The notes under the pieces: model-generated
What the model saw: the letters and a program-made list of their open reading frames with translations, nothing else
What the model was told of the DNA's origin: nothing
The model's database searches: none
Made by a program: the position numbers and the translations under genes
Assembly (NCBI GenBank): GCA_043801745.1
Contig: JAZDLR010000013.1
Coordinates: 9,608-73,607 of the forward strand
From: Candidatus Komeilibacteria bacterium
GTDB taxonomy: Bacteria > Patescibacteriota > Patescibacteriia > UBA1558 > 2-01-FULL-52-15
DNA: 64,000 nucleotides
Direction: 5' to 3'
In this document: piece by piece, positions 34 through 64,000 of the stretch
How the letters are laid out: every line of letters starts with the position of its first letter
Position numbering within the stretch: position 1 is the stretch's first letter

Positions 34-61
34 TAAAAAAACACCCGACCGAGGCCGGGTG
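34..61 (-). terminator. intrinsic terminator for CDS 92..556
   Basis: Minus strand reads CACCCGGCC-TC-GGTCGGGTG followed by TTTTTTT, immediately after the stop of CDS 92..556. Confidence 0.5.
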
Positions 62-91
62 AGCAGTTAGGGATGCCAGCCCAAAGTCAGG

Positions 92-556
92 TCAGGAGGC
101 GTGCTGCAGCAGATAGGCCGCGGCGGCCTGGATCTGGGCCCAGTCCTTGGCGACCTCGACGGGGTCCAGGTCGTCGAAGAGATTCATCCTGGTCATCCGC
201 CCCAACGGACCCTTGTCGGTGCGGAACGACTGTCCCGCGCCCCAGGTGCCGTTGGCCGCGCGGTGCAGAATACCCCTCTCCGTTTCCGTGACATCGCCAT
301 TGACGATGTCACGGAGCAGAGGCAGGTAGTCCGGCTCAACCCCGCGGGTCAGAGCCATGATGCTGCACCCGGTCAGGACCGCCTGCGGCCCGGCCAGGTT
401 CTGGGCCACCATCTCGGGCTTGTCCTCGCCGAAGGGTTCGGTCCACTCGGGGTGGCCGCAGCCCTCATTGTAGGCGGCGGCACAGGCGTTCGCGATTTCA
501 ATCAGCCGCACCTTGTTCTGCATCAGGTCTCGGATCCACTGATTGCTGGGGATCAT
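92..556 (-). CDS. hypothetical protein (GC-rich island 1)
   Basis: 154-aa ORF in a ~60% GC segment flanked by AT-rich DNA. SD GGAGGT sits 7 nt upstream on the minus strand. No recognisable domain. Confidence 0.5.
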   Translation of the reverse strand: MIPSNQWIRDLMQNKVRLIEIANACAAAYNEGCGHPEWTEPFGEDKPEMVAQNLAGPQAVLTGCSIMALTRGVEPDYLPLLRDIVNGDVTETERGILHRAANGTWGAGQSFRTDKGPLGRMTRMNLFDDLDPVEVAKDWAQIQAAAAYLLQHAS

Positions 557-704
557 TTTTAACCTCCGTCGGTTTAGGGTTTGGTAAGGAACTACGGGGA
601 ATTGCTGGAATTTATAAGGATATCATATATTTCGTATCTTGTCAATAGTGTGATGAGAAGCTATTTATCATTGAAAATATCTCTTATTTTGATATAATTG
701 TCTT

Positions 705-1991
705 ATGTTAGCGCGACTTGGACAGCTAGCTAATTTTGTTGCTAAAGAGGTAGAAATACCGGCGTGGGTTTATAACCTACGTTCTTCGGGTAAGATAACT
801 TTTTTGCAACTTCGTGACGGGTCTGGGTGGAGTCAGGCCATTGTTGATGAATCTAAAGTTGATTCTAAAGTTTGGAAAACTACCAATGAGCTAACTATTG
901 AATCGTCAGTAATTATTTTTGGTAAAGTTTCCAAGCATCCGAAAAAAGAGGAATACGAAATTCAGGTCAGTGATATTAAAGTTCAGCAGATAGCCGAGGA
1001 GTATCCGATTGGAAAAAAAGAGCATGGTGTGGACTTTCTCATGGACCAACGGCATCTTTGGTTGAGGTCATCTAAACAATGGGCCATTCAGCGTGTGCGG
1101 AACACAGTAATTAATAGTATCTTTGAATTTTTGAATAATAGGGGATATATCAAGATTGACGCGCCGATTCTGACGCCTAATGCTTGTGAGGGCACGACTG
1201 AACTTTTCGAAGTGCCGTATTTTGACGAAAAAGCTTATTTAACTCAAAGCGGTCAGTTATATATTGAAGCTGCGATCTTTTCTCATGGCCAAGTTTTTGA
1301 TTTTGGTCCGGTTTTCCGCGCGGAAAAATCCAAAACCCGCCGGCATCTGACCGAGTTCTGGATGATGGATGCCGAGGCAGCCTGGGTGGAGCACGAGGAG
1401 AATATGAAGATTCAGGAAGAGTTGATTAAATATGTTGTCAGTAAAGTGGTTGAAAGTTGTCAGTTAGAATTACAACTTCTGGAGAGAGATATTGAGCCGT
1501 TGAAAAAATTAAGCCAACCGTTTATTAGAATGAGTTATGACGAGGCGATTAAGAAATTAAATAAACTGGGCTCGGATATTAAAAACGGTGAGGATTTGGG
1601 TGGTGATGACGAAACTTTATTAACCAAAGATAGTGAGGTGCCGATTTTTGTGGAAAAGTGGCCGAGTGAGATAAAGGCTTTCTATATGAAGCGCGATCCT
1701 CAAAATACAAAATTAGCCTTATGTTCTGATTTGATCGCGACAGAAGGACACGGTGAAATAATTGGCGGGTCGCAGAGAGAAGATGATTATGACGAGCTGT
1801 TGAAACGCATTAAAGAACGGAAATTTCCCATTTCTGATTGGCAATGGTATCTTGATTTAAGGAAATATGGGTCAGTGCCGCACTCGGGATTTGGCGTTGG
1901 TTTGGAGCGTTTAGTTGGCTGGATCTGCAACGTTCATCATGTTAGGGAAACTATTCCATTTCCACGGACTATAAATAGACTACGTCCATAA
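705..1991 (+). CDS. asnS: asparagine--tRNA ligase
   Basis: Class II aaRS motifs FRAEKSKTRRHLTEFWMMDAE, GGSQRE and HSGFGVGLERLV. N-terminal OB fold (ITFLQLRDGSG). 428 aa. Confidence 0.85.
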   Translation: MLARLGQLANFVAKEVEIPAWVYNLRSSGKITFLQLRDGSGWSQAIVDESKVDSKVWKTTNELTIESSVIIFGKVSKHPKKEEYEIQVSDIKVQQIAEEYPIGKKEHGVDFLMDQRHLWLRSSKQWAIQRVRNTVINSIFEFLNNRGYIKIDAPILTPNACEGTTELFEVPYFDEKAYLTQSGQLYIEAAIFSHGQVFDFGPVFRAEKSKTRRHLTEFWMMDAEAAWVEHEENMKIQEELIKYVVSKVVESCQLELQLLERDIEPLKKLSQPFIRMSYDEAIKKLNKLGSDIKNGEDLGGDDETLLTKDSEVPIFVEKWPSEIKAFYMKRDPQNTKLALCSDLIATEGHGEIIGGSQREDDYDELLKRIKERKFPISDWQWYLDLRKYGSVPHSGFGVGLERLVGWICNVHHVRETIPFPRTINRLRP

Positions 1992-2010
1992 ATTTTTAAC
2001 CTCACCCCGA

Positions 2011-2033
2011 CCCTCTCCTTGGAAAGGAGAGGG
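2011..2033. repeat. GC-rich palindrome CCCTCTCCTT-gga-AAGGAGAGGG (family A)
   Basis: Perfect 10-bp inverted repeat between asnS and aspS, preceded by CCTCACC. The 3' arm carries an AGGAG SD-like sequence 15 nt before the aspS ATG. Confidence 0.5.
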
Positions 2034-2047
2034 AGGACAAGGAAAAT

Positions 2048-3466
2048 ATGAAAACCTACATCAACGAAACATTGAAGAAAAAAGTCGGCGAAACAATAGA
2101 GCTCGCCGGCTGGTGTCAGACTATTCGTAAAATGGGCAAGATTGCCTTTATTGATTTACGGGATTCCACTGGTTTGATTCAGGTTGTTTTGGTGCCAAAA
2201 GAAATGGCCATTGGGGCGGATATTACCAGTGATTTACGGCCGGAATTTGTGGTAAAAATAAAAGGAATTATTCAAAAACGAGACGCGAAGCAGGTTAATG
2301 AATCTTTGGCAACCGGCCAGATTGAAATTTTAGCCAAGGAAATTGTGATTTTAAGCGCCTCAGAAGTTCCGCCTTTTGAAATAGATAATGAAGAGCGTCA
2401 AGCCAATGACGAGCTGCGGTTAAAATACCGCTATTTAGATTTACGGCACGAGCGGATGAATAAGAATATGCATTTGCGCAGTGACGTGCTATTTTTCTTG
2501 AGAAATTATTTGCAGAAACTGGGCTTTATCGAAATTCAGACGCCGATTTTGTCCAAGTCTACCCCAGAGGGCGCGCGCGACTATTTAGTGCCTTCGCGTC
2601 TGCATAAAGGCAAATTTTTTGCTTTACCGCAAAGTCCGCAGCAATATAAGCAGCTTCTAATGATCGCCGGCTTTGAACGTTATTTTCAGATCGCGCCGTG
2701 TTTCCGCGATGAGGACGCGCGCGCCGACCGTAGTCCGGGCGAGTTCTATCAACTGGATATTGAAATGTCATTTGTGGAACAGGAAGATATTTTACAGCTG
2801 ACAGAGAAAATGTATACGGAAATGGTGAAAACTTTGTTTCCGGATAAGAAAGTAACTGTTAAACCCTGGCCGCGTCTTAGTCACGCTGATGCCATGAAGA
2901 AATATGGTACTGATAAACCCGATTTGAGGCAAGAGAAAAATGATCCCAATGAATTGGCTTTTGCCTGGATCGTCGATTTTCCCTTATTTACTGAACAATC
3001 GGCTGACGATAAATTTTACGGCGTTAGCGGTAAATTTGTGCCTTCGCATCATATGTTTACCGCGCCACATCCTGAGGACGTTTTGCTTCTTGATAAAGAA
3101 CCGCTGAAGGTGCGCGGACTGCAGCACGACTTAGTACTGAACGGCTATGAGGTTGGCGGCGGCAGTATCAGAATTCATGATGCGAAAATCCAGCAGAAAG
3201 TTTGGGACCTGATTGGTTTCACGGCGCAGCAGCAGAAAATGTTTAGTCACTTAATTGAAGCTTTCAAATATGGCGTACCACCGCACGGCGGAATTGCTCC
3301 GGGCATAGAACGTTTATTGATGGTTTTAGCCGGTGAGAAAAATTTGCGCGAGATTACGGCTTTTCCTTTGACCAGTGACGGTCGCGACCCCCTGATGGAT
3401 AGTCCGTCGCAGGTGACGAAAGAGCAGTTGGCTGAATTGGGGCTAAGATTGGAGAAAAAGAGTTAA
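2048..3466 (+). CDS. aspS: aspartate--tRNA ligase (short form lacking GAD insertion)
   Basis: LRYRYLDLR, QSPQQYKQLLM, FRDEDARADR and GGGSIRIHD motifs. 472 aa. Confidence 0.9.
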   Translation: MKTYINETLKKKVGETIELAGWCQTIRKMGKIAFIDLRDSTGLIQVVLVPKEMAIGADITSDLRPEFVVKIKGIIQKRDAKQVNESLATGQIEILAKEIVILSASEVPPFEIDNEERQANDELRLKYRYLDLRHERMNKNMHLRSDVLFFLRNYLQKLGFIEIQTPILSKSTPEGARDYLVPSRLHKGKFFALPQSPQQYKQLLMIAGFERYFQIAPCFRDEDARADRSPGEFYQLDIEMSFVEQEDILQLTEKMYTEMVKTLFPDKKVTVKPWPRLSHADAMKKYGTDKPDLRQEKNDPNELAFAWIVDFPLFTEQSADDKFYGVSGKFVPSHHMFTAPHPEDVLLLDKEPLKVRGLQHDLVLNGYEVGGGSIRIHDAKIQQKVWDLIGFTAQQQKMFSHLIEAFKYGVPPHGGIAPGIERLLMVLAGEKNLREITAFPLTSDGRDPLMDSPSQVTKEQLAELGLRLEKKS

Positions 3467-5408: not shown

Positions 5409-5442
5409 GCAAACGGATTTCAGCAGTTATAAATGTAAATGA

Positions 5443-5490
5443 AAAGAGCGGCCGCGTTACTCACTGTTGTGAGTGTTGCGGTCGCTCTTT
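5443..5490 (-). terminator. long hairpin terminator for the island 2 genes
   Basis: AAAGAGCGGCCGC...GCGGTCGCTCTTT inverted repeat with an inner ACTCACA/TGTGAGT stem. Followed by TTTTCATTT on the minus strand. Confidence 0.45.
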
Positions 5491-5504
5491 ACGTTGTCGG
5501 CACA

Positions 5505-5600
5505 CTAGCTGTTCCATCTCCGATTCCCGATCAGTCGACTCATTAAGACCGGGACCCACAGCGGGGAAAGGATCAGAATGAAGATACCGAGAATGTCCAT
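5505..5600 (-). CDS. putative 31-aa hydrophobic peptide
   Basis: ATG preceded by GGGAGA at 5-nt spacing. Product MDILGIFILILSPLWVPVLMSRLIGNRRWNS. Below the ORF-track size cutoff, so speculative. Confidence 0.2.
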   Translation of the reverse strand: MDILGIFILILSPLWVPVLMSRLIGNRRWNS

Positions 5601-5670
5601 GGATGTCTCCCTTCTTCCTTAAAGTGCCTTTTCTGGGGTTGCTTCTTTTTTGTGCAGGTAGAGTTAGTGT

Positions 5671-6165
5671 TTAGAAGTTCTCTACCACTACACGTCTTGA
5701 CTCCCAGCGAACGTTGCCGCTGAATTCGACCGTAGCTCCATTGGTGTCTTCGAAAATGAAGCACCAACCATGGTCCGCCTCATTCAGGCCATTGAAAGAC
5801 AGGGCCTTGAGAGTGTAGCGGTTGTTGACTAGCCCAACCGGGGTCACTCCGAGCGTGATCTGGTAGGCGCCGGATATAGAGTATCCGGTTACCATGGTGA
5901 CGATGGTGATCTGCTGACTGGGAATATTCGGCCAGCAAGTAATGATTCCGCCGAATGGGTCAAGCGGTAGGCCGGCATCTTTGAACGTCTGACTCCTGAT
6001 TTGCACCAGTGCCTGGTCGTCGCTCCCGTTCATGGCCACAGTCTTGGGCTGTTGGCGGTTAATAACAAGTACACCGCCACCTCCCTGAGCCCAGGCAGGA
6101 ACCATGTTCAGACACAGAACCGCGAGAACAAGCAGTACGAGGCCGATGATTTTGGGGGTCTTCAT
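5671..6165 (-). CDS. secreted hypothetical protein (GC-rich island 2)
   Basis: Signal peptide MKTPKIIGLVLLVLAVLCLNMVPAWAQ. SD GGAGGA 6 nt upstream. ~55% GC versus AT-rich flanks. Confidence 0.55.
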   Translation of the reverse strand: MKTPKIIGLVLLVLAVLCLNMVPAWAQGGGGVLVINRQQPKTVAMNGSDDQALVQIRSQTFKDAGLPLDPFGGIITCWPNIPSQQITIVTMVTGYSISGAYQITLGVTPVGLVNNRYTLKALSFNGLNEADHGWCFIFEDTNGATVEFSGNVRWESRRVVVENF

Positions 6166-6337
6166 GAAGCGTCCTCCGTGTTTAGTGATTGGAACACTAT
6201 TGGCACAGTGATTATCGTTATCAGCTGACATTGGGTCAGCTAAGGTTGTAAGAACGTAAGATTCTAGAAAGTATCAATTTTGTGTCATTTTGTCAATCTG
6301 GGCTAATCTTGTGCTTTGGTTTAATCTATAGTTAGCC

Positions 6338-6678: not shown

Positions 6679-7311
6679 GTGTCTCGGTGTAACATATTAA
6701 CCACTATGACCAACAAACAATTGATCAAAAAATTGGACGAGTGGGGCGTCGATTATGAGGTGCTGAAACACAAGACTGTGTTTACCGCTCATGATGTGGC
6801 CGCCACTCTGAAAACAAAATTAGACGAAATCGTGAAAACGCTGGTCATTGAAGCGGACAAGCGTTTTTATTTAGTGTCTTTGCCGGCCAGCAAGAATATT
6901 GATTTTAAGCAGTTGAAAAAGGTGATTAAGAAAATGGGCGGCTCGGTCAAGAGCATCGGCATTCCGAGCGAGGAAGTTTTAGTTAAGAAGCTGGGCATCA
7001 AACCCGGCGGAGTTACGGCTTTTTCTAAGTTGCATAAATTACCGCATATAATTGACCGCGATCTGAAGAAAATTAAGAAAGGTGTGTTAAGCGGCGGCAG
7101 TGTGTCAGAAAGTCTGAAAATGAAAATCGCCGACTGGATTAAAGTTGAGGAGCCGAAGGTGGAGATCATTGGTGTTAAGCGTAAAATTAAACCGGTGAAA
7201 AATAATAAAAAAGGGAAAAGCAAAGTTGTAAAGAAAAAATTAAAGATTAAGAAATCAAAACCAAAGGCGAGGAAGGTTGTGCCGAAGAGAACGAATAAGC
7301 GTCGCCGCTAG
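6679..7311 (+). CDS. YbaK/ProX-like aminoacyl-tRNA deacylase domain protein with Lys-rich tail
   Basis: DEWGVDYEVLKHKTVFTAHDVA and LVIEADKRFYLVSLPASKNIDFKQLKK resemble the YbaK/EbsC editing domain. Start could instead be the ATG at 6706. Confidence 0.55.
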   Translation: MSRCNILTTMTNKQLIKKLDEWGVDYEVLKHKTVFTAHDVAATLKTKLDEIVKTLVIEADKRFYLVSLPASKNIDFKQLKKVIKKMGGSVKSIGIPSEEVLVKKLGIKPGGVTAFSKLHKLPHIIDRDLKKIKKGVLSGGSVSESLKMKIADWIKVEEPKVEIIGVKRKIKPVKNNKKGKSKVVKKKLKIKKSKPKARKVVPKRTNKRRR

Positions 7312-9786: not shown

Positions 9787-10444
9787 ATTTTTAGCCTTGG
9801 CCGGTATTGCCAGCCGGCGGGAAGCTGAGCAGTTGATTACAGCCGGTAAGGTTTTGGTCAATGGCAAGCCGCACCTGGAGCTGGGCCGTCCGATTGATGA
9901 AAATAGAGATGTCGTTGTCTTTCGTGGCCAACCAGTGAGAGCTGAAGCCAAAGTTTACTATTTAGTGCACAAGCCGATCGGTTATCTATCGGCCAATAAG
10001 GATAGTTACACGGATCTGGTAGTTACTAAGCTGGTTCCTATTCAGCCAAAAGTTTATCCGGTGGGTCGTCTGGATAAAGATTCCAGCGGCTTAATGTTGT
10101 TAACTAATGATGGTGATTTAACTTATCAGCTGACTCATCCTAAGTTTGCCGTTGAAAAAGAATATGAAGTAACCACCGATAAACCGGTTACGGCGGCTTT
10201 GTTGGCGGATTTAAAAAAGGGAGTGAAATTGGCTGAGGGATTGGCGGTTATTGATAACGGTAAAATTATTGGTCCGAAAAAATTCAGTCTGACTTTGCAT
10301 CAGGGCTGGAACCGGCAAATTCGTCGGATGTTAGGTCACTTAGGTATTGGCGTAGTTGGTTTAGTCCGGGTCCGGGAGGGAAATCTGAAATTAGGTAGTT
10401 TGCCTGTGGGCAAGTATAAAAAAATTACCCAGCCGCATTTATGA
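9770..10444 (+). CDS. rluB: pseudouridine synthase, RsuA/RluB family
   Basis: S4 domain (IASRREAEQLITAGKVLVNG) plus the catalytic motif GRLDKDSSGLMLLTNDG. Confidence 0.8.
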   Translation: MIRLAKFLALAGIASRREAEQLITAGKVLVNGKPHLELGRPIDENRDVVVFRGQPVRAEAKVYYLVHKPIGYLSANKDSYTDLVVTKLVPIQPKVYPVGRLDKDSSGLMLLTNDGDLTYQLTHPKFAVEKEYEVTTDKPVTAALLADLKKGVKLAEGLAVIDNGKIIGPKKFSLTLHQGWNRQIRRMLGHLGIGVVGLVRVREGNLKLGSLPVGKYKKITQPHL

Positions 10445-11391
10445 CCAGTTTCGTACAATTTTGCGCGGCCATCATTACTCTGTTAGGCTTATCTCTAAGC
10501 CAAACGCCGCAGCTTTATACTTTAGTCTGGCATGAGCGGGCCGAACCGGTGGGTTCTGTCTGGACTTGGAGTAAACAATCAACAGTTGGAGCTCCGGTGA
10601 AAATTAATAGGGATTCTTTAGGTGTGGCGGTCGCAGCGCCGACAGCGATTATTATCGACGGTCAGAGCGGTGCTACGCTCTGGGAGAAAAATCCGGCCGA
10701 TGTCCGCGCCATTGGCAGTATTACTAAACTCATGTCAGTGTTAGTTTTCTTAGATCATAATCCTGGCTGGAATACAGTTGTCACCATTACAGCCGCAGAT
10801 CAAGCGAACGACGGCAGAAGTAACTTTGTGGTTGGCGAACAAATTAAAGTCCGGGATTTATTGGCTGCCAGTCTGATCCCGTCTGATAATGACGCGACGC
10901 AGACTCTGGCGCGGATTAGCGGTCTGTCATCAGAGGACTTTGTGAAAGCCATGAACGATAAAGCCCGCAGTTTAGGCATGACGCAGACGGTTTTCACCGA
11001 ACCGACCGGCCTGTCAGCTGATAATGTCTCCACTGCCCGCGAAGTAATAGTTTTTGCTCGGGAAGCTTTTGCCCGCCCGGAAATTGCCGTTTTTGTCAGC
11101 GATAAGGAATATCAATTTACTTCCGTAAGTGGTCAGCAACATCGATTAAAATCCACCAATAAACTTTTCGGCTCTATTATTGGTATTAAACAAGCCAAGA
11201 CTGGTTTTATTGATCAGGCTGGTCATTGTATGGTGGCCAAAGTTGAGGATAAAGGGCGAATTATTTTTACCGCTGTGCTGGGAGCGCCAACTGATGCCGA
11301 CCGTTTTCAAGATACTAAAATGTTAAGCTATTGGGCTTTTCATAATTGGCGTTGGCCCCAAGAGGCTAATCCGCCGCAGTTAGTGCTATAA
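10441..11391 (+). CDS. D-alanyl-D-alanine carboxypeptidase (PBP5/DacA family)
   Basis: SITK, SDN and KTG active-site motifs with an N-terminal signal peptide. Confidence 0.75.
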   Translation: MTSFVQFCAAIITLLGLSLSQTPQLYTLVWHERAEPVGSVWTWSKQSTVGAPVKINRDSLGVAVAAPTAIIIDGQSGATLWEKNPADVRAIGSITKLMSVLVFLDHNPGWNTVVTITAADQANDGRSNFVVGEQIKVRDLLAASLIPSDNDATQTLARISGLSSEDFVKAMNDKARSLGMTQTVFTEPTGLSADNVSTAREVIVFAREAFARPEIAVFVSDKEYQFTSVSGQQHRLKSTNKLFGSIIGIKQAKTGFIDQAGHCMVAKVEDKGRIIFTAVLGAPTDADRFQDTKMLSYWAFHNWRWPQEANPPQLVL

Positions 11392-14802: not shown

Positions 14803-14878
14803 TGGAGCCATCCGTCGGAATCGAACCGACGACCTACGGTTTACAAAACCGTTGCTCTACCAGCTGAGCTAGGATGGC
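14803..14878 (-). tRNA. tRNA-Thr(TGT)
   Basis: GCCATCC acceptor, anticodon loop TTTGTAA, T-arm GGTTCGATTCC, encoded CCA. Confidence 0.85.
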
Positions 14879-14918
14879 GGACTTTTAATTGGTGATTAAT
14901 GAACCTTCGTCAATGCGG

Positions 14919-15024
14919 GACGACCTACGGTTTATCCCGCCACCTTTATTAAATTTAAATGAAGGCGGGACCCCGCCAAAGGCGGTGGCAAAACCGTTGC
15001 TCTACCAGCTGAGCTATCTCGGCC
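14919..15024 (-). pseudogene. tRNA-Thr(TGT)-derived pseudo-tRNA with a 53-nt insertion in the anticodon loop and no T-arm
   Basis: 28 nt (TAGCTCAGCTGGTAGAGCAACGGTTTTG) and 16 nt (TAAACCGTAGGTCGTC) are identical to the adjacent tRNA-Thr. They are split by CCACCGCCTTTGGCGGGGTCCCGCC...GGTGGCGGGA. The 3' part lacks a T-stem and acceptor strand. Confidence 0.5.
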
Positions 15025-15031
15025 TATTCGC

Positions 15032-15154: not shown

Positions 15155-15254
15155 GGGCTACATTATTATACCTTATTGGTAAGCGTTTCTGATAGTCCTG
15201 GCGGCCAGCTCGACGTAACGACTAAGTTCTGACAGCGCGCTGTTAGCTTTTAGT

Positions 15255-15312
15255 TAAAAAATCCCCCGCGTGAGAGCACCAGGCCAAAACCTGATACTGC
15301 TTCACGCGGGGG
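15255..15312 (-). terminator. intrinsic terminator of the island 3 gene
   Basis: 11-bp stem CCCCCGCGTGA/TCACGCGGGGG followed by ATTTTTT on the minus strand. Confidence 0.5.
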
Positions 15313-15326
15313 AAAGGCGCGGCCGA

Positions 15327-15890
15327 CTACTTTACCTCGGCCTGCTCTTCAGGGTTCGCATAGACCGCCCAGTGGCAGGTCAGGCGCCTGAACTCGGACC
15401 AGGCCATGTGCTTCTCCAGCATGCCATCGTCAGTGACGGCGAGGATGGGGAAGCGACGGGCACCGTCCTTCAGCCAGTAGTCGTCTGGGAAACCCACTCC
15501 TCTCCTGGCACTCTTGATTGAGCTCGGGGTCATGGGGTCGTCCCAGGATCCGTCGTGGGGCAAGATGTCCTTGAGGCTCTCGAGTGTCGGAAATCTAGCA
15601 TGGAACGGTCCCATCCACCAGCCCGAAGCCGGCTGTCCGTACGGGAGGAGCGCTTGCTTCATCGTATTCAGGTTAGGCCGGATAACGCCGTGCAATATCA
15701 CTAGCTTGAAATTTCCCACGACATTGAAGGGAGGTCCCGTACCCCCCGAGTAAACCCACCCCCGAGGATCATCTCCGCAGGCGCGGACCAACTCCATGGG
15801 GTCGAATGGGGTTGCGAGCGTGAGCTGAAACACCTTGCTCACGCTGACCTGGTCGGTCTGGTCTTCGATGGTCACAATAGGTTCAGTCAT
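15327..15890 (-). CDS. hypothetical protein (GC-rich island 3)
   Basis: 187-aa ORF at ~60% GC. SD GGAGGA 6 nt upstream in the context CACCAAACCACGGAGGATACTATG. No recognisable domain. Confidence 0.55.
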   Translation of the reverse strand: MTEPIVTIEDQTDQVSVSKVFQLTLATPFDPMELVRACGDDPRGWVYSGGTGPPFNVVGNFKLVILHGVIRPNLNTMKQALLPYGQPASGWWMGPFHARFPTLESLKDILPHDGSWDDPMTPSSIKSARRGVGFPDDYWLKDGARRFPILAVTDDGMLEKHMAWSEFRRLTCHWAVYANPEEQAEVK

Positions 15891-16086
15891 AGTATCCTCC
15901 GTGGTTTGGTGTTCTTGTTCTCCTTCGCGACATCCGCGTGGTAAGCGCCATAGCTTCTCACCAGATTGTCCGTACAGGCGAAATTGTACTTACAGACTCT
16001 TAAAGGAACCACACACACCCTAACATTATTATCAGTAACGTCAAGGCGTAGGGATCCTTCCCAGGAGGTCGTATGATAATAAAAAG

Positions 16087-28324: not shown

Positions 28325-28356
28325 TCATTAGCGTTCCTTAGATTTATTAATTAATT

Positions 28357-38994: not shown

Positions 38995-39013
38995 GAAGAT
39001 TAATAGAGTAATA

Positions 39014-39051
39014 TCGCCCACAGGGCGACCGCCCCTTGGGCGGGATTAATT
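39014..39051. repeat. GC-rich palindromic insertion (family B) flanked by 8-bp direct repeats GAGTAATA
   Basis: TCGCCCACAGGGCGA CCGCCCCTTGGGCGGG with GAGTAATA on both sides (39006-39013 and 39052-39059). Shares CGCCCACAGGGCG with the element at 60161-60194. Confidence 0.5.
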
Positions 39052-44521: not shown

Positions 44522-44577
44522 ATAAATACCCCTTTTTATGGTATATTATATACTACTAAAAACCTGTGTATAAAAAT

Positions 44578-50630: not shown

Positions 50631-50659
50631 TTGACAAAATATCTGATATTAGATATAAT
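50631..50659 (+). promoter_or_regulatory. consensus sigma70 promoter for the island 4 gene
   Basis: TTGACA, 17-nt spacer, TATAAT, perfect consensus. Confidence 0.55.
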
Positions 50660-50686
50660 ACGATAATACCCAAAGTGGGTAATCGT
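50660..50686 (+). promoter_or_regulatory. palindrome ACGATAATACCCA-aag-TGGGTAATCGT at about +1..+27 of the island 4 transcript
   Basis: Imperfect 11/12-bp inverted repeat directly after the -10. An operator or 5'-UTR hairpin. Confidence 0.35.
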
Positions 50687-50755
50687 ACGTTAACATTGTC
50701 GGAATTGTCCGATTTTCTGGTTACTTAGCGTGGCTGCGGCCACAGGAGGTGGTAC

Positions 50756-52393
50756 ATGTTCGGATTCATGCTGTTCCTGATCGTTGTGGTTCTGGGCGCC
50801 GTTGTTTATGAGAATATGCGGCAGCCCAATCCTGAGACGCGGGTCTTCCCAGATTCGCGCGAACCCATCACTCAGGCAGTGACCTGGAGTCACTGCCACA
50901 CGGTCCTGGAGACCAGCCTTTACTGGCTGCTGGTGGCCATGATTTGGCCCCTGGTTGCGGGCACCATCTTCGGATGGGTCTCGCTGACCTGGTATAGCAG
51001 CTATGTCGTCCAGCACATCGCAGACGGCGGCATCTGGAACATGTTCAGTTTCGCAGTCACCAGTAACATCTTGGTGCGCTGCATCCTGATCTACTGCATC
51101 GGCTCCATAGCTCTTACGGGCTATCTGGTTGTGAACTGGCCACACGGTGTGGCCCGCTTCCTGGTAGGACGCAAGTGGCGGGTCATGAACTCCGGCTTGC
51201 ACTTTGTGCTGGGCGGCATCGTGATTGGCTACCGTACAGTAGTCGTGGATGAGGCCAAGAAGATCACCCGCCGTGAAAGGCGCTACCTTTTCGGCCGCAT
51301 TGGCCGGAATGTGTTAGTGCTGCGCGATGAACTCCGGGCTAGCGTGGTGCTGACCGAGGGCGGTCAGACAAGCGAGCAGGCGATTAAGACCCTCACTACC
51401 GAACCGTTGCCGACATCGATGTCTGTTAACGGCAACGCTGCTGCCGCAGCTGCCAGCGGTTCCGGTGGTACTACGCTGAAGTTCCCCCACAACTTCTATT
51501 TCGTGAAGTGGTGGCTGTTCACCTACCTTGGAACTTCGCCGGCTACGCTGAGCAAGCATCTGGTGACATCTGTTGATGACCTGTTCCAGGCTGATTGGCG
51601 GCGTTTCGTCGCCATCCTGGACTATGACCAGGCAAGGTTTGTGCAGGGTAACGTTTTCTGCTTCGCTGACCAGAACGATCTGGGCAGGAAGATGGAAGAG
51701 TTCAGAGTTCAGCATATCGGCCCCGTTGAGGCTTGGGCTGCCTATCAGCGGTACCTGGCTAACAGGGACGAGGTTACCGAAGGACCACGGTTTGATATCG
51801 CGGCTTTCGATAACCTCAAGGCCACGCGTAACTACGTGGCCATGGCAAGGATGATCCGCGAGCAGGCTCCGAATTCCTTGGCCTGCCGGGTGCTCAATCA
51901 GTTCGGCGTCATTCTCACCTTCTTCGGTATCGAGAACGGCATTGAAGAGGCGGGAATCGCTGCCGAACGCGAGCAGCTGAAGCAGAACCAGGTCAAGCAG
52001 CAGGCAGATTTCCTGGCCGGCGGTGCGGAAATGCGCCGGGCCATGGGAACTGTGCTGCAGCAGCACGGAATCTCGCTGGCTGTGTGGGAATCGCTGCCGG
52101 TAGGTGATCCGCTGAGGGCCCGTCTCCATAGTGAGATGATGGAAACCTGGCGTTTTACCCAGACCATGGCGACTATCGGGGACAAGGACAAGATCATCCT
52201 TGGTGGCAGCGGACAGTCCGGACTTTCCACAACCATCGCGGCCATGGCCGCAGTTCTGCCCCAGGCAAGTGGTGGAGCAGCGGCTGCGACAACGACATCC
52301 ACGTCCACGCCTCCTGTGACACCTGCTCCGCCGACCAGATCTACTGGCCGCGGCAACAGGCCTCGTCGCAGAGGCAACAGAAGCCGACCGTAA
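50756..52393 (+). CDS. membrane protein of unknown function (GC-rich island 4)
   Basis: 545 aa at ~60% GC. AGGAGG 6 nt upstream in a CCACAGGAGG context. About 5 N-terminal TM helices, then a large soluble domain with Ala/Thr/Pro-rich basic C-terminus. Confidence 0.6.
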   Translation: MFGFMLFLIVVVLGAVVYENMRQPNPETRVFPDSREPITQAVTWSHCHTVLETSLYWLLVAMIWPLVAGTIFGWVSLTWYSSYVVQHIADGGIWNMFSFAVTSNILVRCILIYCIGSIALTGYLVVNWPHGVARFLVGRKWRVMNSGLHFVLGGIVIGYRTVVVDEAKKITRRERRYLFGRIGRNVLVLRDELRASVVLTEGGQTSEQAIKTLTTEPLPTSMSVNGNAAAAAASGSGGTTLKFPHNFYFVKWWLFTYLGTSPATLSKHLVTSVDDLFQADWRRFVAILDYDQARFVQGNVFCFADQNDLGRKMEEFRVQHIGPVEAWAAYQRYLANRDEVTEGPRFDIAAFDNLKATRNYVAMARMIREQAPNSLACRVLNQFGVILTFFGIENGIEEAGIAAEREQLKQNQVKQQADFLAGGAEMRRAMGTVLQQHGISLAVWESLPVGDPLRARLHSEMMETWRFTQTMATIGDKDKIILGGSGQSGLSTTIAAMAAVLPQASGGAAAATTTSTSTPPVTPAPPTRSTGRGNRPRRRGNRSRP

Positions 52394-52413
52394 CAACGGT
52401 CGCAACAACAGCT

Positions 52414-52449
52414 CCCCCGTGTGCTTTTACAGGCACGGGGGAGTTTTTT
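52414..52449 (+). terminator. intrinsic terminator of the island 4 gene
   Basis: CCCCCGTG-tgcttttacagg-CACGGGGG followed by AGTTTTTT. Confidence 0.6.
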
Positions 52450-52452
52450 AAA

Positions 52453-52885
52453 CAGATAAGCCACCCCGCCTTGGCGGGGTGTGTTCGTTTTAAAGCGTAG
52501 CTCTTGAAGTACACATAGAAGGCGAAGAAACGGAAGGACAAGCTCTGCTCTTAGCAACTCAAATCATCCGATCTTTCTAGTTGTCCGCATACTAAGGATT
52601 GGCTTTGTTATACCCCTCGCCCCCTCGGCTTCGCTCGGGGCAGGCTTGAGGCCCTACTTTTGTAACCAAAAGTAGGGAAAAGTTTCGGGGGCGCGTAAGT
52701 CGCGTGGGTCTTTTCAGCTTAATCTTGCTTGTCGTGGCTATCAGTACGCGACCCCAAACCCCCTAAAAGATAAAATTAGCAGGTGTTGATTAAACAGTAG
52801 CGTTCTTACCTTTATCATATCAACTTAGGCCGCTACCGTAGGCAGCTAGAACAGAAACCTTCAGCGTTTAAGCTGAAGGTATGTT
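52453..52885 (+). ncRNA. copy 2 of the ~400-nt structured intergenic element
   Basis: Same 5' 45 nt (CAGATAAgCCACCCCGCCTTGGCGGGGTGTGTtCGTTTTAA). H3 is CCTACTTTTG/CAAAAGTAGG, the long-range helix is GGGGGCGCG/CGCGACCCC, and H5 is CCTTCAGC/GCTGAAGG. All are compensatory relative to copy 1. Confidence 0.4.
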
Positions 52886-58655: not shown

Positions 58656-60146
58656 ATGGCTGTCTTATACCGTAAATATCGGCCCCAAAAATTTGCCACT
58701 GTGGTGGGTCAAAACCATATTAAAACCACTCTAGCGGGCGAGATTATTAGTGGTCACTTAGCGCATGCTTATTTATTTGTTGGTCCGAGGGGTACGGGGA
58801 AAACAACTTTAGCTCGTCTGTTTGCCCGGGCTATTAATTGCTTGGAGCGTCCTAAAGATTCAGCGGAGCCCTGCAATAAATGTGCTATTTGTCAGCAGAT
58901 TATGTCCGGCCGTTCGCTGGATATAATTGAGATTGATGCGGCTACTCATACCCAGGTAGATAATGTCCGGGCTAATATTATCGCCAATGCCCAAGTGCCG
59001 CCGTATAACAGTAAGGGGTATAAAGTTTTTGTTATTGATGAAGTTCACATGTTGTCTAAGGCGGCGTTTAACGCCTTGTTAAAAACTATGGAAGAGCCGC
59101 CGGAACGGGTGATTTTTATTTTAGCAACAACTGAAGTGCGTAAAGTGCCGGAAACTATTATTTCCCGTTGTCAGCGTTTTGATTTCAAGAAAATTCCTAC
59201 GGCCTCAATCATTGAACGGTTACAGTCCATTGCCAACCAAGAACAAATTATTATACCGGCCGAAGTACTGGCGGCCGTGGCCCGTCGGTCCGAAGGAGGA
59301 ATGCGTGACGCCGAATCAATTTTGGGCCAAATTGTTGGCTTGGCTGAAGATAAGAAAGTGACGGAGGAAATAGCTTATCTGGTTCTGCCGCGTAGCAATT
59401 GGAATGATGTGGAGATTTTTCTGGAAAATTTGCAGGTCCGCAATGTGCAGCAGGCCCTGAAGCACTTGCATCAATTAGTCAGAGAAGGAATTGACGTGGA
59501 TGATCTGGCGGCTGATCTGGTGGAGTACACCAGACAGATTTTGCTGGCGCAGGCCATGGGATTGGCTTATGATCCGGATATTGAGCAGCAACGGATTGCT
59601 AAAATCAGGGAATTGGCTGGACGCTTCAGCACCAAAGAATTAGTTAATTTATTAGAAGTATTTTTGGACAAAGCAGCAGAGACTAAATCGGCTATGATAC
59701 CGCAGCTGCCCTTGGAATTGGGCATAGTTGAATTCTGCCAGGACGCCGTGATGGCTGCCGAGCCAATAGTAGAGAGGGTTGTGACGGAAGCGCCGGATTC
59801 CCAGACAGCAGCTGTTATGACTACTGGTTCCTGGAATGCTATTTTAGACGCCATGAAGCCCCTGAATCATTCCTTATCGGCTTTTATGAAAGTCGGTCAC
59901 CCAATTAGTTTGGAAAAGGGCATTTTAACTATAGGTTTTGAATACGATTTTCACGCCGAACGTGTGCGTGAAAGCAAAAATAAACAGACAGCTCAACAAA
60001 TTATTGGCGACGTTTTGGGTCAGCCAGTTACTATTCAGGCGATTGTGGATAAGGATTATCAAGCCAATCATCAGAAATTTAACGGCGGTAAGGATAAAGA
60101 AGTGGAGGAGGTATTGGGAGCTCTGGGCGGTGGGGAAATGGTTTGA
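58656..60146 (+). CDS. dnaX: DNA polymerase III subunit gamma/tau
   Basis: AAA+ clamp-loader motifs (GPRGTGKTT, zinc module CNKCAICQQI, SRC motif). Confidence 0.85.
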   Translation: MAVLYRKYRPQKFATVVGQNHIKTTLAGEIISGHLAHAYLFVGPRGTGKTTLARLFARAINCLERPKDSAEPCNKCAICQQIMSGRSLDIIEIDAATHTQVDNVRANIIANAQVPPYNSKGYKVFVIDEVHMLSKAAFNALLKTMEEPPERVIFILATTEVRKVPETIISRCQRFDFKKIPTASIIERLQSIANQEQIIIPAEVLAAVARRSEGGMRDAESILGQIVGLAEDKKVTEEIAYLVLPRSNWNDVEIFLENLQVRNVQQALKHLHQLVREGIDVDDLAADLVEYTRQILLAQAMGLAYDPDIEQQRIAKIRELAGRFSTKELVNLLEVFLDKAAETKSAMIPQLPLELGIVEFCQDAVMAAEPIVERVVTEAPDSQTAAVMTTGSWNAILDAMKPLNHSLSAFMKVGHPISLEKGILTIGFEYDFHAERVRESKNKQTAQQIIGDVLGQPVTIQAIVDKDYQANHQKFNGGKDKEVEEVLGALGGGEMV

Positions 60147-60160
60147 ATCAGGTTGTAGGA

Positions 60161-60194
60161 ATTACCGCCCACAGGGCGGTCGCCCTGTGGACGA
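60161..60194. repeat. GC-rich palindromic insertion (family B) flanked by 10-bp direct repeats GGTTGTAGGA / GGTTGTAGGT
   Basis: ATTACCGCCCACAGGGCGGTCGCCCTGTGGACGA with the stem CCACAGGGCG/CGCCCTGTGG. Flanking repeats at 60151-60160 and 60195-60204 look like target-site duplications. Confidence 0.5.
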
Positions 60195-60217
60195 GGTTGT
60201 AGGTAAGAGATAAAGAA

Positions 60218-60250
60218 AACGGCCCAGCGCGTCTGACGCGCTGGGCCGTT
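60218..60250. terminator. bidirectional terminator between dnaX and the prs-like gene
   Basis: Perfect 14-bp stem AACGGCCCAGCGCG/CGCGCTGGGCCGTT. An A-run precedes it and a T-rich run follows on the minus strand. Confidence 0.55.
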
Positions 60251-60253
60251 CGG

Positions 60254-61318
60254 TTAGTCGTGGAGGGTTTCCAGCACTTCCACTAGACGTCGGGCCAGTT
60301 CCGGTGCCGTATCAACGGTGATGATATGGCCACCGGTGCCAACCTCGTATACCGTCTGCTCGGTAAAGCCGCGTCTGCGGGTGTTTCCCACGATGACCTT
60401 GTCAAAAGGATGTGGACTCTTACGGGGGAAAAGCCGCCGCTTCCAGCCATGGCTGCAGACGGGGTGTGTAGCTACCAGGCGCAGAGAATTAACGCCCTTC
60501 TGTCGCAGATGCTTGGCTGTGTGGGCACAGGTAGAGCCGGAAGCGACTTCATCTTCACGCATGAAGACGTTCATGCCGTTTAGCGCCTCCAGGTCGGTCA
60601 TGACCTGGACGTCGTCACCGTACTGCCGGTAAATGCGGTCAAGAAACGTGTCATCAGTGATGATCTGGATTTCGCCGTCCCGACGCTCTTTAGCCGTGGC
60701 CATCACCCTGGTGTTAGTCAGTTTGGCCATGGTAATAGCGCGGCCCACCGAACCAAAGTCGGGTGAATACCAGAACACAGTTTCCGGGCCATAGCTTTGG
60801 ATCAATGGAGACACTTCGCGCGCAAACAGCTCGCTCGGGTCAGCGATGAACAGGTTAAGGCCAAATTCACGGGCGAACGTGGACGTGATTTCCAGATTGT
60901 GGGGGTCGCAGACCAAGAGATTGTCTACTCCTTGATCTTTTAACCCCTTCAGATACCACCGCAGACGGGTAATCTCGTTGGTGAATTCTGGATGATCCTG
61001 TTTGCGGTAACGCATGAATGGCATGATCACAGTGACTGATCTGGCCCCGTACTGGAACTTACAGGCCGTAATCATATCCCGTAACTGCAATTCATGCTTG
61101 TTATCTATCACGCTGGCAAACAGGATCGCATGACGGCCATTGATTTGTTCTGGTAGCTCCAGCTCAAATCCCGGCTCGCCGTCGTTGAAAGGATCGTGGT
61201 ACACGTGAGTAAAGGTCAGGAGTTGGTTCAGGCGCTGGCTGACTATATCCAGCGTGGTTTCCGCCAGTGAAAAGTTGGATGTTCCGCTGTAAAGAACCAG
61301 CCTGTCTCGGTTAATCAT
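60254..61318 (-). CDS. divergent ribose-phosphate pyrophosphokinase (Prs)-like phosphoribosyltransferase
   Basis: Prs-like order of motifs: LVLYSGTSNFSLAE, VIMPFMRYRKQDH, LLVCDPHN, YSPDFGSVGRA, and the PRPP-binding loop EDEVASGST. ~55% GC with strong SD in a CCACTAGGAGG context. Confidence 0.55.
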   Translation of the reverse strand: MINRDRLVLYSGTSNFSLAETTLDIVSQRLNQLLTFTHVYHDPFNDGEPGFELELPEQINGRHAILFASVIDNKHELQLRDMITACKFQYGARSVTVIMPFMRYRKQDHPEFTNEITRLRWYLKGLKDQGVDNLLVCDPHNLEITSTFAREFGLNLFIADPSELFAREVSPLIQSYGPETVFWYSPDFGSVGRAITMAKLTNTRVMATAKERRDGEIQIITDDTFLDRIYRQYGDDVQVMTDLEALNGMNVFMREDEVASGSTCAHTAKHLRQKGVNSLRLVATHPVCSHGWKRRLFPRKSPHPFDKVIVGNTRRRGFTEQTVYEVGTGGHIITVDTAPELARRLVEVLETLHD

Positions 61319-61406
61319 GGCTGCCTCCTAGTGGAAAGTCAGTGAAAAGGACAAGAACTCGGGGTTCTACTAATCACACCCTACTTAAAATAATGTCAAT
61401 TTGTCA

Positions 61407-61446
61407 ACCCCGTTAGAAGTTCTAATTGAAATATTTCTAACGGGGT
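61407..61446. promoter_or_regulatory. 12-bp perfect inverted repeat ACCCCGTTAGAA...TTCTAACGGGGT abutting a TTGACA (minus strand)
   Basis: Same CGGGGT+TTGACA junction (CGGGGTTGACA) as the palindrome upstream of hrcA. Lies upstream of the prs-like gene. Confidence 0.4.
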
Positions 61447-62228: not shown

Positions 62229-62235
62229 GTAATTT

Positions 62236-62913: not shown

Positions 62914-62997
62914 AGTCCGAAAGGGCTGTTTTTTTATGTCCGTCTAGATAGGCTAAAATAGAATCTGTACGTAGAGGTGTGGACAACATTTCAAATA

Positions 62998-63026
62998 GGC
63001 AGTAGGGATTCGAACCTAGCGACTTG
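62998..63026 (-). pseudogene. tRNA 3'-end fragment (T-arm + acceptor 3' strand)
   Basis: Minus strand reads GTCGCTAGGTTCGAATCCCTACTGCC with no matching 5' half. Typical of an integrase attachment-site remnant. Confidence 0.4.
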
Positions 63027-63073
63027 TAAACACCCCCAAGAATGCTATCGTGAACACATAAGCAAATCACTCT

Positions 63074-63577
63074 ATGAGGGACGCTGATTATATTGTGGCT
63101 AACTGGCCAATAGATAAGCAAGGCGAAGTCGCGGCAGTGAAGAGCTTTTTGGATAACTCAAGATGCGTATTTTCATTTACGCCATCGAATATAGAATGTC
63201 ATGCTGCGGAGCCAACAGATATATGGGTGAAGGATATAAATAGGAAATTTCAGATTGTGGTAGCAGATTTTGAACGTTATGAGCTTCTCGGAAAAGCCAA
63301 GCCAAATGAAATAGGACTCAAAGTAATAAGCTTTGAGCGCAACTGGGATGATGTATGGAGAGAGTATGTAATTAAACCCTTAAGAAAAAAGAACAAATAC
63401 GGTCGAGCAGCTAATGGGATAACGCTACTCATAGATGCGCCGTCTAAAAAACCGCCTCGGCTAGAGTCGGCTATATCTGTCTTGCGAAAGACCGGGCGTA
63501 ATAGAGAGGCGCAACAGTTAGGCTTCGACGAAATCTATTTAGTCTTCAAAGAGGGCAACATACAGATCTATCCTTAA
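63074..63577 (+). CDS. hypothetical protein
   Basis: 167-aa ORF directly after the tRNA fragment. No recognisable domain. Confidence 0.5.
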   Translation: MRDADYIVANWPIDKQGEVAAVKSFLDNSRCVFSFTPSNIECHAAEPTDIWVKDINRKFQIVVADFERYELLGKAKPNEIGLKVISFERNWDDVWREYVIKPLRKKNKYGRAANGITLLIDAPSKKPPRLESAISVLRKTGRNREAQQLGFDEIYLVFKEGNIQIYP

Positions 63578-63588
63578 TCAAAAGTTCA

Positions 63589-63630
63589 ACGGCCAGCCTC
63601 GCACGTTGCGAGGCTGGCCGTTTCTTCTTC
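63589..63630. terminator. bidirectional terminator
   Basis: 15-bp stem ACGGCCAGCCTCGCA/TGCGAGGCTGGCCGT followed by TTTCTTCTTC. Confidence 0.55.
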
Positions 63631-63638
63631 ATGACAAT

Positions 63639-64000
63639 CTATCTGTACAGCGTCTTGATGGCGCCCCAGGTTGTCGGTTGAACCGAAGTCGGAGTAGAAC
63701 ACCCGGGCTCAGGTGCGAACCCCATTGGACCATAGACATGGGTCAATGCGGGTGACACATCCCGGAGACGGTAGTCGCCGTTTGCCGGATCACAGAACAT
63801 GGGATCAGTGGAGATGTTGTAGCCCACAGTAGGAGCACCTGGAAAATCAGAACAGGCAGCATCCAGAGTCTCGCTAGTGAGTTGAATGTCGGGCCCGCCC
63901 AGGTTACCCCAGACTATGGAATGGTCAAGGGCAAGGCTAGACCATTTAGCTACAATTCCGGAACCCCCAGGCGAGGGATTGAACAAATTACCTGCCACAG
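63639..64000 (-). CDS. C-terminal part of a GC-rich right-handed beta-helix-like protein (island 6, continues beyond the window)
   Basis: High GC. PMFCDPANGDYRLRDVSPA resembles the C-terminal repeat of parallel beta-helix proteins. Confidence 0.45.
   Translation of the reverse strand, partial: VAGNLFNPSPGGSGIVAKWSSLALDHSIVWGNLGGPDIQLTSETLDAACSDFPGAPTVGYNISTDPMFCDPANGDYRLRDVSPALTHVYGPMGFAPEPGCSTPTSVQPTTWGAIKTLYR

Follow-up and report, generated by a model that had tools for sequence, protein, structure and literature searches.

Islands of GC-rich, Shine-Dalgarno-led single genes in a Komeilibacteria genome, two of them still GC-rich past synonymous saturation

What keeps a few genes GC-rich, and led by strong Shine-Dalgarno (SD) sequences, in a genome that is itself AT-richer and mostly does without SDs? 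The question is raised by a stretch of 64,000 nucleotides of contig JAZDLR010000013.1 (the window: the whole stretch that we analyzed). It is DNA of Candidatus Komeilibacteria, which belongs to the candidate phyla radiation (CPR), and not of a Saccharibacterium, with 45.3% GC. Six single-gene segments, here called islands 1 to 6, stand out in it. An earlier note, made from the letters of the sequence, saw in them what horizontally acquired genes would look like if their donor were rich in GC and used SDs (Actinobacteria were one suggestion), or if a common phage or mobile element had brought them. We find instead that islands 4 and 5 are syntenic in sister genomes and have kept their GC excess beyond saturation of neutral sites. 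Our best reading is that island GC-richness is maintained or repeatedly renewed, the candidate causes being selection on synonymous sites, biased gene conversion, and replacement from an unsampled GC-rich pool.

The 57 host genes of the window set a narrow baseline, with a GC content of 0.444±0.026 and a GC content at third codon positions (GC3) of 0.439±0.037, at most 0.51. Against this baseline all six segments are real: they show in sliding-window GC, in GC3 (z from +2.7 to +11), and in a flipped codon usage. Their parts, including each coding sequence (CDS), are as follows.

42..645, minus strand: island 1 unit, with promoter-like TTGACA-17-TATCCT at 645-617, a ~55-nt CA-rich leader, and SD ACGGAGG at 569-563
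92-556, minus strand: island 1 CDS, GC 0.65, GC3 0.86, z=+11; product (556-92) of 154 aa, all-helical, FRTDKGPLGR family
61-42, minus strand: island 1 terminator, a hairpin and then a T-run
5442..6296, minus strand: island 2 unit, with promoter-like sites at 6296-6261, a ~90-nt leader, and SD ACGGAGG at 6179-6173
5671-6165, minus strand: island 2 CDS, GC 0.54, GC3 0.65, z=+5.6; product (6165-5671) of 164 aa (MKTPK...), with a signal peptide, orphan
5505-5600, minus strand: second open reading frame (ORF) of island 2, 31 hydrophobic codons (MDILGIFILILSPLWVPVLMSRLIGNRRWNS) with its own GGGAGA, between the island 2 stop codon and terminator
~5490-5442, minus strand: island 2 terminator, a hairpin in common with a convergent plus-strand gene
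15262..16044, minus strand: island 3 unit, with promoter-like TTGACG-16-TAGGGT at 16044-16017, a ~125-nt leader, and SD ACGGAGG at 15902-15896
15327-15890, minus strand: island 3 CDS, GC 0.59, GC3 0.74, z=+8; product (15890-15327) of 187 aa, orphan
~15311-15263, minus strand: island 3 terminator, a long GC hairpin
50631..52481, plus strand: island 4 unit, with a perfect TTGACA-17-TATAAT at 50631-50659, a ~95-nt leader, and SD AGGAGG at 50744-50749
50756-52393, plus strand: island 4 CDS, GC 0.58, GC3 0.70, z=+7; product of 545 aa with N-terminal membrane helices and a basic Pro/Thr/Arg tail
52412-52443 and 52462-52481, plus strand: island 4 terminators, two tandem hairpins
60217..61407, minus strand: island 5 unit, with promoter-like TTGACA-18-TAGGGT at 61407-61378, a ~55-nt leader, and SD AGGAGG (GGAGG at 61328-61324)
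60254-61318, minus strand: island 5 CDS, GC 0.54, GC3 0.64, z=+5; product (61318-60254) of 354 aa, a very divergent Prs-like enzyme
60251-60217, minus strand: island 5 terminator, a 16-bp GC hairpin
63588..64000, minus strand: island 6 (partial), 119 codons for the C-terminal part of a secreted, putative right-handed beta-helix protein of 380 aa (P0025 / MFH0873682.1); CDS from 63639 to the window end, GC 0.55, GC3 0.54, z=+2.7
63622-63588, minus strand: island 6 terminator, a 16-bp GC hairpin in common with the convergent gene at 63074-63577

Sustained GC-rich runs lie at 1-620 (59%), 15181-15980 (58%), 50701-52560 (58%), 60061-60940 (56%), and 63561-64000 (54%), with a weaker run at island 2 (5681-6200, 54%). 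Change-point analysis places the GC steps at 551 for island 1, 15262-15863 for island 3, 50729-52479 for island 4, 60103-61334 for island 5, and 63589 for island 6; it did not recover the boundaries of island 2. The step falls on the start codon and the terminator, and the promoters and leaders, though they adjoin it, are AT-rich and host-like. In two-fold pyrimidine boxes the host uses NNT at 72 to 79% and the islands NNC at 63 to 75%; island codons include AAG at 84% and CTG at 54%, where the host favors AAA and TTA/TTG. Island proteins are enriched in Gly, Arg, Pro, and Trp and depleted in Lys and Ile. Islands 2 and 6 have the weakest GC signal, and the excess of island 6 reflects its amino acid composition, because it sits in codon positions 1 and 2.

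The islands also differ from the host in their translation signals. An SD of at least 5 nt, placed 3 to 11 nt before the start, precedes all five visible island starts, as opposed to 2 of the 57 host starts (Fisher p=3e-6). Island 6 begins beyond the window end, as does its SD, so that SD counts cover five islands. The two host genes with a strong SD are the second of two tandem aminoacyl-tRNA synthetase paralogs (2048) and a 120-aa gene at 47137, between grpE and dnaK, whose SD is conserved in the sister contig L001. GGAGG is not enriched window-wide (81 found versus 94 expected). That host genes mostly lack SDs, and that several look leaderless, was also noticed from the letters: a TATAAT-like hexamer lies 3 to 12 nt 5' of the start codon in 14 of the 57, so these mRNAs look leaderless. 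Examples with TATAAT 6 to 9 nt before ATG, and without an SD, are the host starts at 705, 18876, 22317, 33065, 53977 (minus strand), and 54982, and the pattern suggests that leaderless mRNAs may be widespread in this Komeilibacterium. The proposed 5' context common to all islands holds for islands 1 to 3, which have ACGGAGG and a CA-rich tract, and not for the whole set. ACGGAGG occurs four times in the window, three of these being the SDs of islands 1, 2, and 3, and the CA-rich leader as a common context does not reach significance when the five islands are taken by themselves (p=0.13). Island 2, previously given a start at 6231, starts at 6165.

Sigma-70-like promoters lie ~60 to 125 nt 5' of the island start codons (sites located for islands 1 to 5), and a GC-rich hairpin terminator with a T-run follows all six islands. 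The hairpins, which had been supposed to be private, are not all so: one of island 4 lies within a repeat also found at 31344-31725, and one adjacent to island 5 recurs at 39012-39047. Host genes are nearly all on the plus strand; the minus strand holds five of the six islands versus 4 of 57 host genes (p=1e-4). RNA folding of the island 1 and island 3 transcripts gives z ~ -3, which we tentatively attribute mostly to the terminator hairpins and do not read as a sign of structured RNA. The island 4 leader holds two small hairpins that are present in sister genomes too. The 31-codon SD-led ORF between the stop codon and the terminator of island 2 means that this island may be bicistronic; at locus L017 a beta-helix relative is likewise trailed by a small SD-led secreted ORF.

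Islands 4 and 5 provide a test of age. They lie at identical syntenic sites in sister genomes, where the earlier note had proposed to look. Island 4 has only five homologs among 5.8 billion protein clusters, and the three whose contigs were fetched are all flanked by dnaJ and dus, on contigs of sister Komeilibacteria. Its sister set comprises six contigs, with distinct orthologs in L001, L005, and L006, while L002 to L004 bear the L001 protein. Island 5 again lies between dnaX and an EamA gene on the sister contigs long enough to reach it, and a check for empty sites, made for these two islands, found both in place in L001 to L006. Their proteins evolve fast: the window and L001 copies are 45% (island 4) and 47% (island 5) identical, versus 72 to 90% for 11 of 12 non-pilus neighbors, the remaining one, a hypothetical protein, being at 61%. 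The pilus genes are comparably divergent (44 to 67%), yet their GC3 is ordinary. Sister copies have a GC3 of 0.60 to 0.63 (island 4) and 0.53 (island 5) versus a background of ~0.46, and the promoter and leader at the GC step are AT-rich and conserved between sister genomes.

Is this excess decaying, or is something keeping it up? For the window versus L001, synonymous divergence (dS) was not computable for 11 of 13 genes. At 1,663 four-fold sites in 15 flanking orthologs, the strong (S) or weak (W) base-pairing state is uncorrelated between the two (phi -0.001, 95% confidence interval -0.05 to +0.05), so neutral memory is gone. GC at four-fold sites (GC4) is, in the window and in L001, 0.66 and 0.59 for island 4 and 0.69 and 0.51 for island 5. 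Unlike its neighbors, island 4 retains a site-wise phi of 0.20. Its GC3 is equally high at codons with an invariant and with a variable amino acid. Under neutral amelioration, the product of the deviations remaining in both lineages is at most ~5% of the squared ancestral deviation, and by an arithmetic estimate the observed products need 8 to 15% even with an ancestral GC3 of 1.0. For island 4 we thus reject a single import before the divergence that then decayed neutrally; for island 5 the rejection is marginal. Since their GC3 is raised despite saturated neutral sites, these islands are neither recent nor simply fading imports.

A second comparison concerns L010 and L012, a syntenic pair of Parcubacteria loci (78% identical over 4.3 kb, with a flanking dS of 0.8 to 1.9) that bear homologs of island 1. 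The dS of the homolog is 0.47 and its GC3 is 0.84 and 0.86, versus a background of 0.25 to 0.34; by a two-state estimate, neutral decay would put it at ~0.5.

The island 1 family, small, well conserved, and helical, with the motif RxANxxWGAGQxFRTDKGPLGR, was followed across 11 distinct loci, the window included. Labeled loci are Komeilibacteria (the window), a Parcubacteria metagenome-assembled genome (MAG; 33 to 37% GC background), Parcubacteria-group contigs, and a Gracilibacteria MAG. In 10 of the 11 loci (33 to 52% GC backgrounds over the whole set) the gene has 52 to 66% GC and a GC3 of 0.57 to 0.91, above backgrounds of 35 to 52% GC, and it is usually SD-led where its neighbors lack an SD. 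GC excess and SD poverty of the background show no significant correlation across these loci (rho -0.29, p=0.41, the L016 value coming from an antisense ORF). Identity is at most ~62% for any pair from different genera. Homologs adjoin NAD-salvage genes at L008 (7238-8820), L020 (5665-6336), and L021 (135-3946), the neighbors being a PnuC transporter, a NadR-like AAA_28 protein, an NrtR-type Nudix regulator, NadE, and NadD; their recurrence hints at the function of the family. On the 52% GC CPR-type contig L013 (4679-8480), the homolog heads a run of SD-led genes, followed by two more genes, for products of 290 and 249 aa that match nothing in Pfam, with a GC3 of 0.73 to 0.77 and then an SD-led PP2C phosphatase; this is the sole multigene GC-rich cluster among the loci examined. 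At L007 (JGI Ga0556162_0000189), the background genes hold 1 to 19 in-frame TGA codons each, throughout, so the organism reads UGA as sense.

The remaining islands have few relatives. Islands 2 and 3 have none at an E value below ~1e-7 among 1.84 billion representative proteins. The closest relatives of island 6 (58% identity) are on CPR-type contigs, SD-led, and with a modest GC excess; the window fragment has only a weak DUF5123 match, NCBI calls the full-length protein, P0025, a beta-helix, and its relatives P0027 and P0049 carry PF13229 and PF05048. In searches with Pfam, PHROGs, NCBIfam, and PADLOC, matches among the six island proteins were for the Prs-like gene alone, which is also the only PHROGs match. 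A function had been granted to that gene only; the Prs-like assignment of island 5 stands, and to it can be added the probable secreted beta-helix of island 6 and the NAD-gene neighborhood of island 1. Island 5 matches Pribosyltran_N (PF13793) at 32.9 bits versus a Pfam cutoff of 25, falls below the NCBIfam cutoffs (TIGR01251, 93.4 versus 113 bits; NF002320, 66 versus 297), and has full-length weak matches to TIGR01251, phrog_619, and archaeal and bacterial Prs structures. It is ~24% identical to phage versions of Prs. By eye, it keeps YRKQDH and EDEVASGST where Prs has RQDR-type and DD..TGGT-type loops. It is thus like Prs and phage Prs-like enzymes in its Pribosyltran_N domain and unlike them in its sub-cutoff scores and in its 47% identity between sisters, where housekeeping genes have 72 to 90%; it is probably not the housekeeping Prs. 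Its syntenic ortholog alone was found, no wider homolog search having been made. The structure model of island 4 has a predicted local distance difference test score (pLDDT) of 45.

Could the islands nevertheless be recent arrivals, or artifacts? Their sharp compositional steps in a metagenome-assembled contig are what a chimeric assembly or GC-rich contamination of the MAG would produce, but AT-rich/GC-rich junctions recur in independent assemblies. The L001 protein of island 4 is on at least 12 contigs, including L001 to L004 from ENA and Logan assemblies, with L005 and L006 coming from NCBI MAGs, and L011 (JGI) is 100% identical to L010 (NCBI MAG) over 1,366 bp across both junctions of the island 1 homolog. 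Moreover, the steps coincide with start codons and terminators beside host-type promoters. Chimerism, which the earlier note had wished to see excluded, is therefore excluded; it is already refuted for islands 1, 4, and 5, and we give it practically no chance for the set. A recent acquisition of all six from a high-GC, SD-using phylum (e.g., Actinobacteria), or from one phage or mobile element, would explain codon usage and GARP-enriched, Lys/Ile-poor proteins that resemble those of a 60 to 65% GC genome, SDs in an SD-poor genome, the ACGGAGG common to islands 1 to 3, and the place of island 3 within a tRNA cluster. Nevertheless, we found no actinobacterial relatives of the island proteins, no match for islands 1, 4, 5, or 6 on 2.9 million viral contigs, and all identified relatives in CPR-type, AT-rich contexts. 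The nearest relatives of these four islands are in CPR-type genomes, and such same-lineage matches had been named beforehand as counting against transfer. A single source fits poorly with protein families that are unrelated, promoters that are host-like, and a 5' context common to three of the six. Islands 4 and 5 are syntenic across a divergence saturated at synonymous sites. The proposal is already contradicted for islands 1, 4, and 5, and we judge it very improbable overall. Some lateral movement in the past is plausible all the same, because the islands are compositionally foreign and built differently and the island 1 family is spread patchily across CPR lineages. Ordinary translational selection, with the islands as very highly expressed genes whose C- or G-ending codons are the host optimum, would account for the NNC preference over NNT in all two-fold pyrimidine boxes, a preference seen in highly expressed genes of many bacteria, and for strong promoters, SDs, and terminators. 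However, the chaperone, ribosomal-protein-cluster, and replication genes are unbiased (GC3 of 0.39 to 0.50), and AAG, GAG, four-fold boxes, and codon positions 1 and 2 are shifted too, as under general GC pressure; these two facts make such selection unlikely. In CPR bacteria, with their slow growth and small genomes, it should also be weak. We therefore rate it as improbable.

The account that we favor, and to which we give roughly an even chance, is that the islands are CPR-endemic, insulated, SD-dependent accessory genes whose GC-richness is long-lived and upheld by a GC-favoring force acting on the transcribed ORF. Several observations weigh against it. Among L001, L005, and L006, recent synonymous changes in island 4 number 28 S→W versus 14 W→S, with the flanks balanced, and the implied equilibrium GC3 of 0.46 equals the host value (small n, polarization by parsimony); this looks like decay rather than maintenance. 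Island 4 dS between L001 and L006 is 0.9 to 1.2 versus 0.16 to 0.26 in the flanks (4 to 5 times), and its identity profile is a mosaic; this suggests that alleles have been replaced or that there is local hypermutation. The GC excess is unequal between lineages, the window exceeding L001 for both islands 4 and 5. At L020 an island 1 homolog has native composition (GC3 of 0.39) on a 39% GC contig, so GC-richness is not intrinsic to the family; there, AGGAGG-type SDs precede 4 of 6 genes by eye and 3 of 5 by scan. Finally, the GC-rich L007 homolog (10001-10483) has no in-frame TGA in a host in which TGA makes up ~24% of presumed Gly codons (P about 0.03 to 0.07 for a TGA-free copy). The S→W flux, the dS excess, and the TGA-free copy fit episodic allele replacement from a GC-rich, standard-code pool. 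Recurrent import or allelic replacement from such an unsampled, SD-using pool (for instance the mobile elements or viruses of CPR bacteria, or the organisms they live on), followed by amelioration, would make the GC excess a steady state of renewal and decay. It would also suit an island 1 excess that spans 0.03 to 0.57 between loci, a star-like identity matrix with one apparent incongruence (the L007 copy is 53 to 54% identical to Komeilibacteria and Parcubacteria copies and 34% to the Gracilibacteria copy), and the two orphan islands. Yet no donor pool of this kind was seen among the loci recovered. No GC-rich or recognizably mobile context was found at any of the 11 island 1 loci, the 6 island 4 contigs, or the 3 island 6-family loci, although the search behind the 11 loci was word based and distant homologs in GC-rich phyla could escape it. 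There is no viral match, and no integrase, transposase, or bracketing repeat was found at any island when recombinase-sized ORFs and flanking repeats were looked for. Replacement would have to end precisely at the start codon and terminator, sparing a conserved AT-rich promoter and leader, and the island 1 copies with near-maximal GC3 (0.84 to 0.91) have no near-identical relative among 15 billion proteins. We regard recurrent import as possible but on the whole unlikely.

In the favored account, each island is an autonomous monocistronic unit, with a host-style, AT-rich sigma-70-type promoter, a leader of 55 to 125 nt, a GGAGG SD, a GC-rich ORF, and a hairpin. The units lie amid housekeeping genes that look leaderless or lack SDs, for the most part in antisense to them, and encode fast-evolving accessory proteins almost entirely restricted to CPR-type genomes. 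Initiation would proceed by pairing of the 30S subunit with the SD, unlike in leaderless host genes, and hairpins at both ends (5' and 3'), together with a GC-rich body, may render the mRNAs unusually stable. As for the GC-favoring force, selection could act on synonymous sites or on mRNA properties, or gene conversion could be GC-biased at hypervariable loci with frequent recombination. The coupling of composition and SD extends beyond the window: at ten other CPR-type loci, an SD leads 7 of 14 GC3-high ORFs versus 5 of 96 remaining ORFs.

How do the islands compare with known systems? In the model of Lawrence and Ochman, compositionally atypical acquired islets are said to ameliorate toward the host. 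The islands are like such islets in being single genes of deviant composition that are fast-evolving and lineage restricted or orphan, one family being patchy. They differ in that two are syntenic and GC-rich past synonymous saturation, in that the deviation follows the gene family across hosts of 33 to 52% GC, and in that we found neither a donor lineage nor mobility genes nor target duplications. They are, further, GC-richer than the host, and acquired and orphan genes are usually AT-richer. Phage morons are autonomous promoter-ORF-terminator cassettes between unrelated genes, often of deviant composition, and the islands are similarly single ORFs with their own promoter and terminator; however, they lie outside any prophage, next to dnaK/dnaJ, dnaX, aminoacyl-tRNA synthetase genes, tRNAs, and rpmG, and lack relatives on viral contigs. 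In Bacteroidia, in which the anti-SD is normally sequestered, rpsU is autoregulated via its SD. The islands are likewise an SD-led minority in an SD-poor genome, which implies a separate initiation route and possibly a regulon, but the host here looks leaderless and not dependent on A-rich leaders, its SD-led genes are accessory or orphan rather than ribosomal, and a coupling to GC-rich ORFs is not known from Bacteroidia. The 16S rRNA 3' end and bS21 lie outside the window. GC-biased gene conversion has reportedly been described at recombining bacterial loci (Lassalle et al., 2015). It would match a GC3 raised without translational selection and the excess divergence and mosaicism relative to the flanks; the island excess of 20 to 55 GC3 points is far above the effects reported in bacteria, and the sharp edges enclose the ORF and terminator only. 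Integron cassettes were dropped as a candidate, the islands being scattered, with their own promoters and no attC-like element in common. What is unusual relative to known atypical islets is the GC excess over the host, its persistence past saturation, its recurrence in 10 of 11 island 1 loci, and its coupling to an SD. Our literature searches, made in one library of papers, found no description of GC-rich SD-led islets.

The surroundings of the islands deserve a short account. The window holds two class II aminoacyl-tRNA synthetase paralogs, a tRNA/rpmG cluster, type IV pilus genes, hrcA-grpE-dnaK-dnaJ, dus, corA, a VirB4/TraG-like ATPase, and dnaX; tRNAs were the only Rfam matches at gathering thresholds. 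Features with coordinates are the following.

705-1991 and 2048-3466: tandem class II aminoacyl-tRNA synthetase paralogs (Asp/Lys/Asn-type)
6679-7311: free-standing tRNA-editing-domain protein
25652-30111: two large adjoining proteins, 890 and 584 aa, with Cys-rich repeats (EQCDDGN...DGDGC) and dockerin-like Asp/Gly repeats
44566-45144 and 45193-45783: pilin-like (N_methyl) genes duplicated in tandem, DNA identity 74 to 81%

The two large proteins have internal duplications of 130 to 280 nt, and the pilin-like gene is single copy in L001 versus two copies in the window. Island 3 lies between rpmG (L33, 16152-16310) and tRNA-Trp. Near it, between tRNA-Thr(TGT) and tRNA-Trp, is a degenerate second tRNA-Thr-like sequence (~14905-15026, minus strand). 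Over 28 nt it copies the 5' half perfectly (14989-15016 = 14844-14871); an insertion of ~55 nt with a GC hairpin and then a diverged 3' half follow. It was not called by ARAGORN or Rfam and would be either an intron-bearing tRNA or a pseudo-tRNA scar.

The repeat shared with island 4 is a structured intergenic element of ~430 nt, present at 31344-31725 and 52445-52875 (74% identity), and one copy supplies the second terminator of the island. The copies have the hairpins CCACCCCGCCTTGGCGGGGTG, GGCATTACTTTTGTGACCAAAAGTAAT, and GGGGTCGCC...GGCGACCCC in common. The element has no Rfam match at gathering score and could be a small RNA gene or a repeat resembling miniature inverted-repeat transposable elements. 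A GC-rich palindromic repeat (CGCCCACAGGGCG...), similar to repetitive extragenic palindromes, is intergenic at 39012-39047 and 60163-60198, its second copy lying between dnaX and the island 5 terminator. AACGGCC, present in the terminators of islands 5 and 6, was considered as a DNA-uptake-like sequence and is unsupported as one (16 found, 8.8 expected; 2 of 100 shuffles reach 16).

It is routine to take compositional outliers for recent transfers, and MAGs are often cleaned of them as supposed contamination. Outliers that are GC-richer than their host, CPR-endemic, syntenic, and stable past saturation point to a gene-specific force that shapes base composition. A simple rule, a GC3 outlier plus GGAGG in an SD-poor genome, allows them to be searched for across the radiation. 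If biased conversion or recurrent replacement is at work, the islands mark recombination hot spots in CPR organisms, whose population biology is, to our knowledge, almost unknown. If the force is selection tied to SD initiation or mRNA stability, there would be two translation regimes in one CPR cell, and the islands would flag candidate host-interaction genes encoding secreted, membrane, and nucleotide- or NAD-related proteins. A bolder form of this idea, which we find doubtful, is that CPR bacteria have a second "expression dialect" of SD-led, GC-rich, hairpin-insulated, mostly antisense genes, free of recoded UGA where tested, with synonymous GC kept by selection across lineages of 33 to 52% GC and with mRNAs under a separate regime of translation or stability. 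That regime could consist of ribosomes with a free anti-SD or of long-lived stored mRNAs; in the extreme form, the islands would be nucleic acid expressed in the partner cell of the episymbiont.

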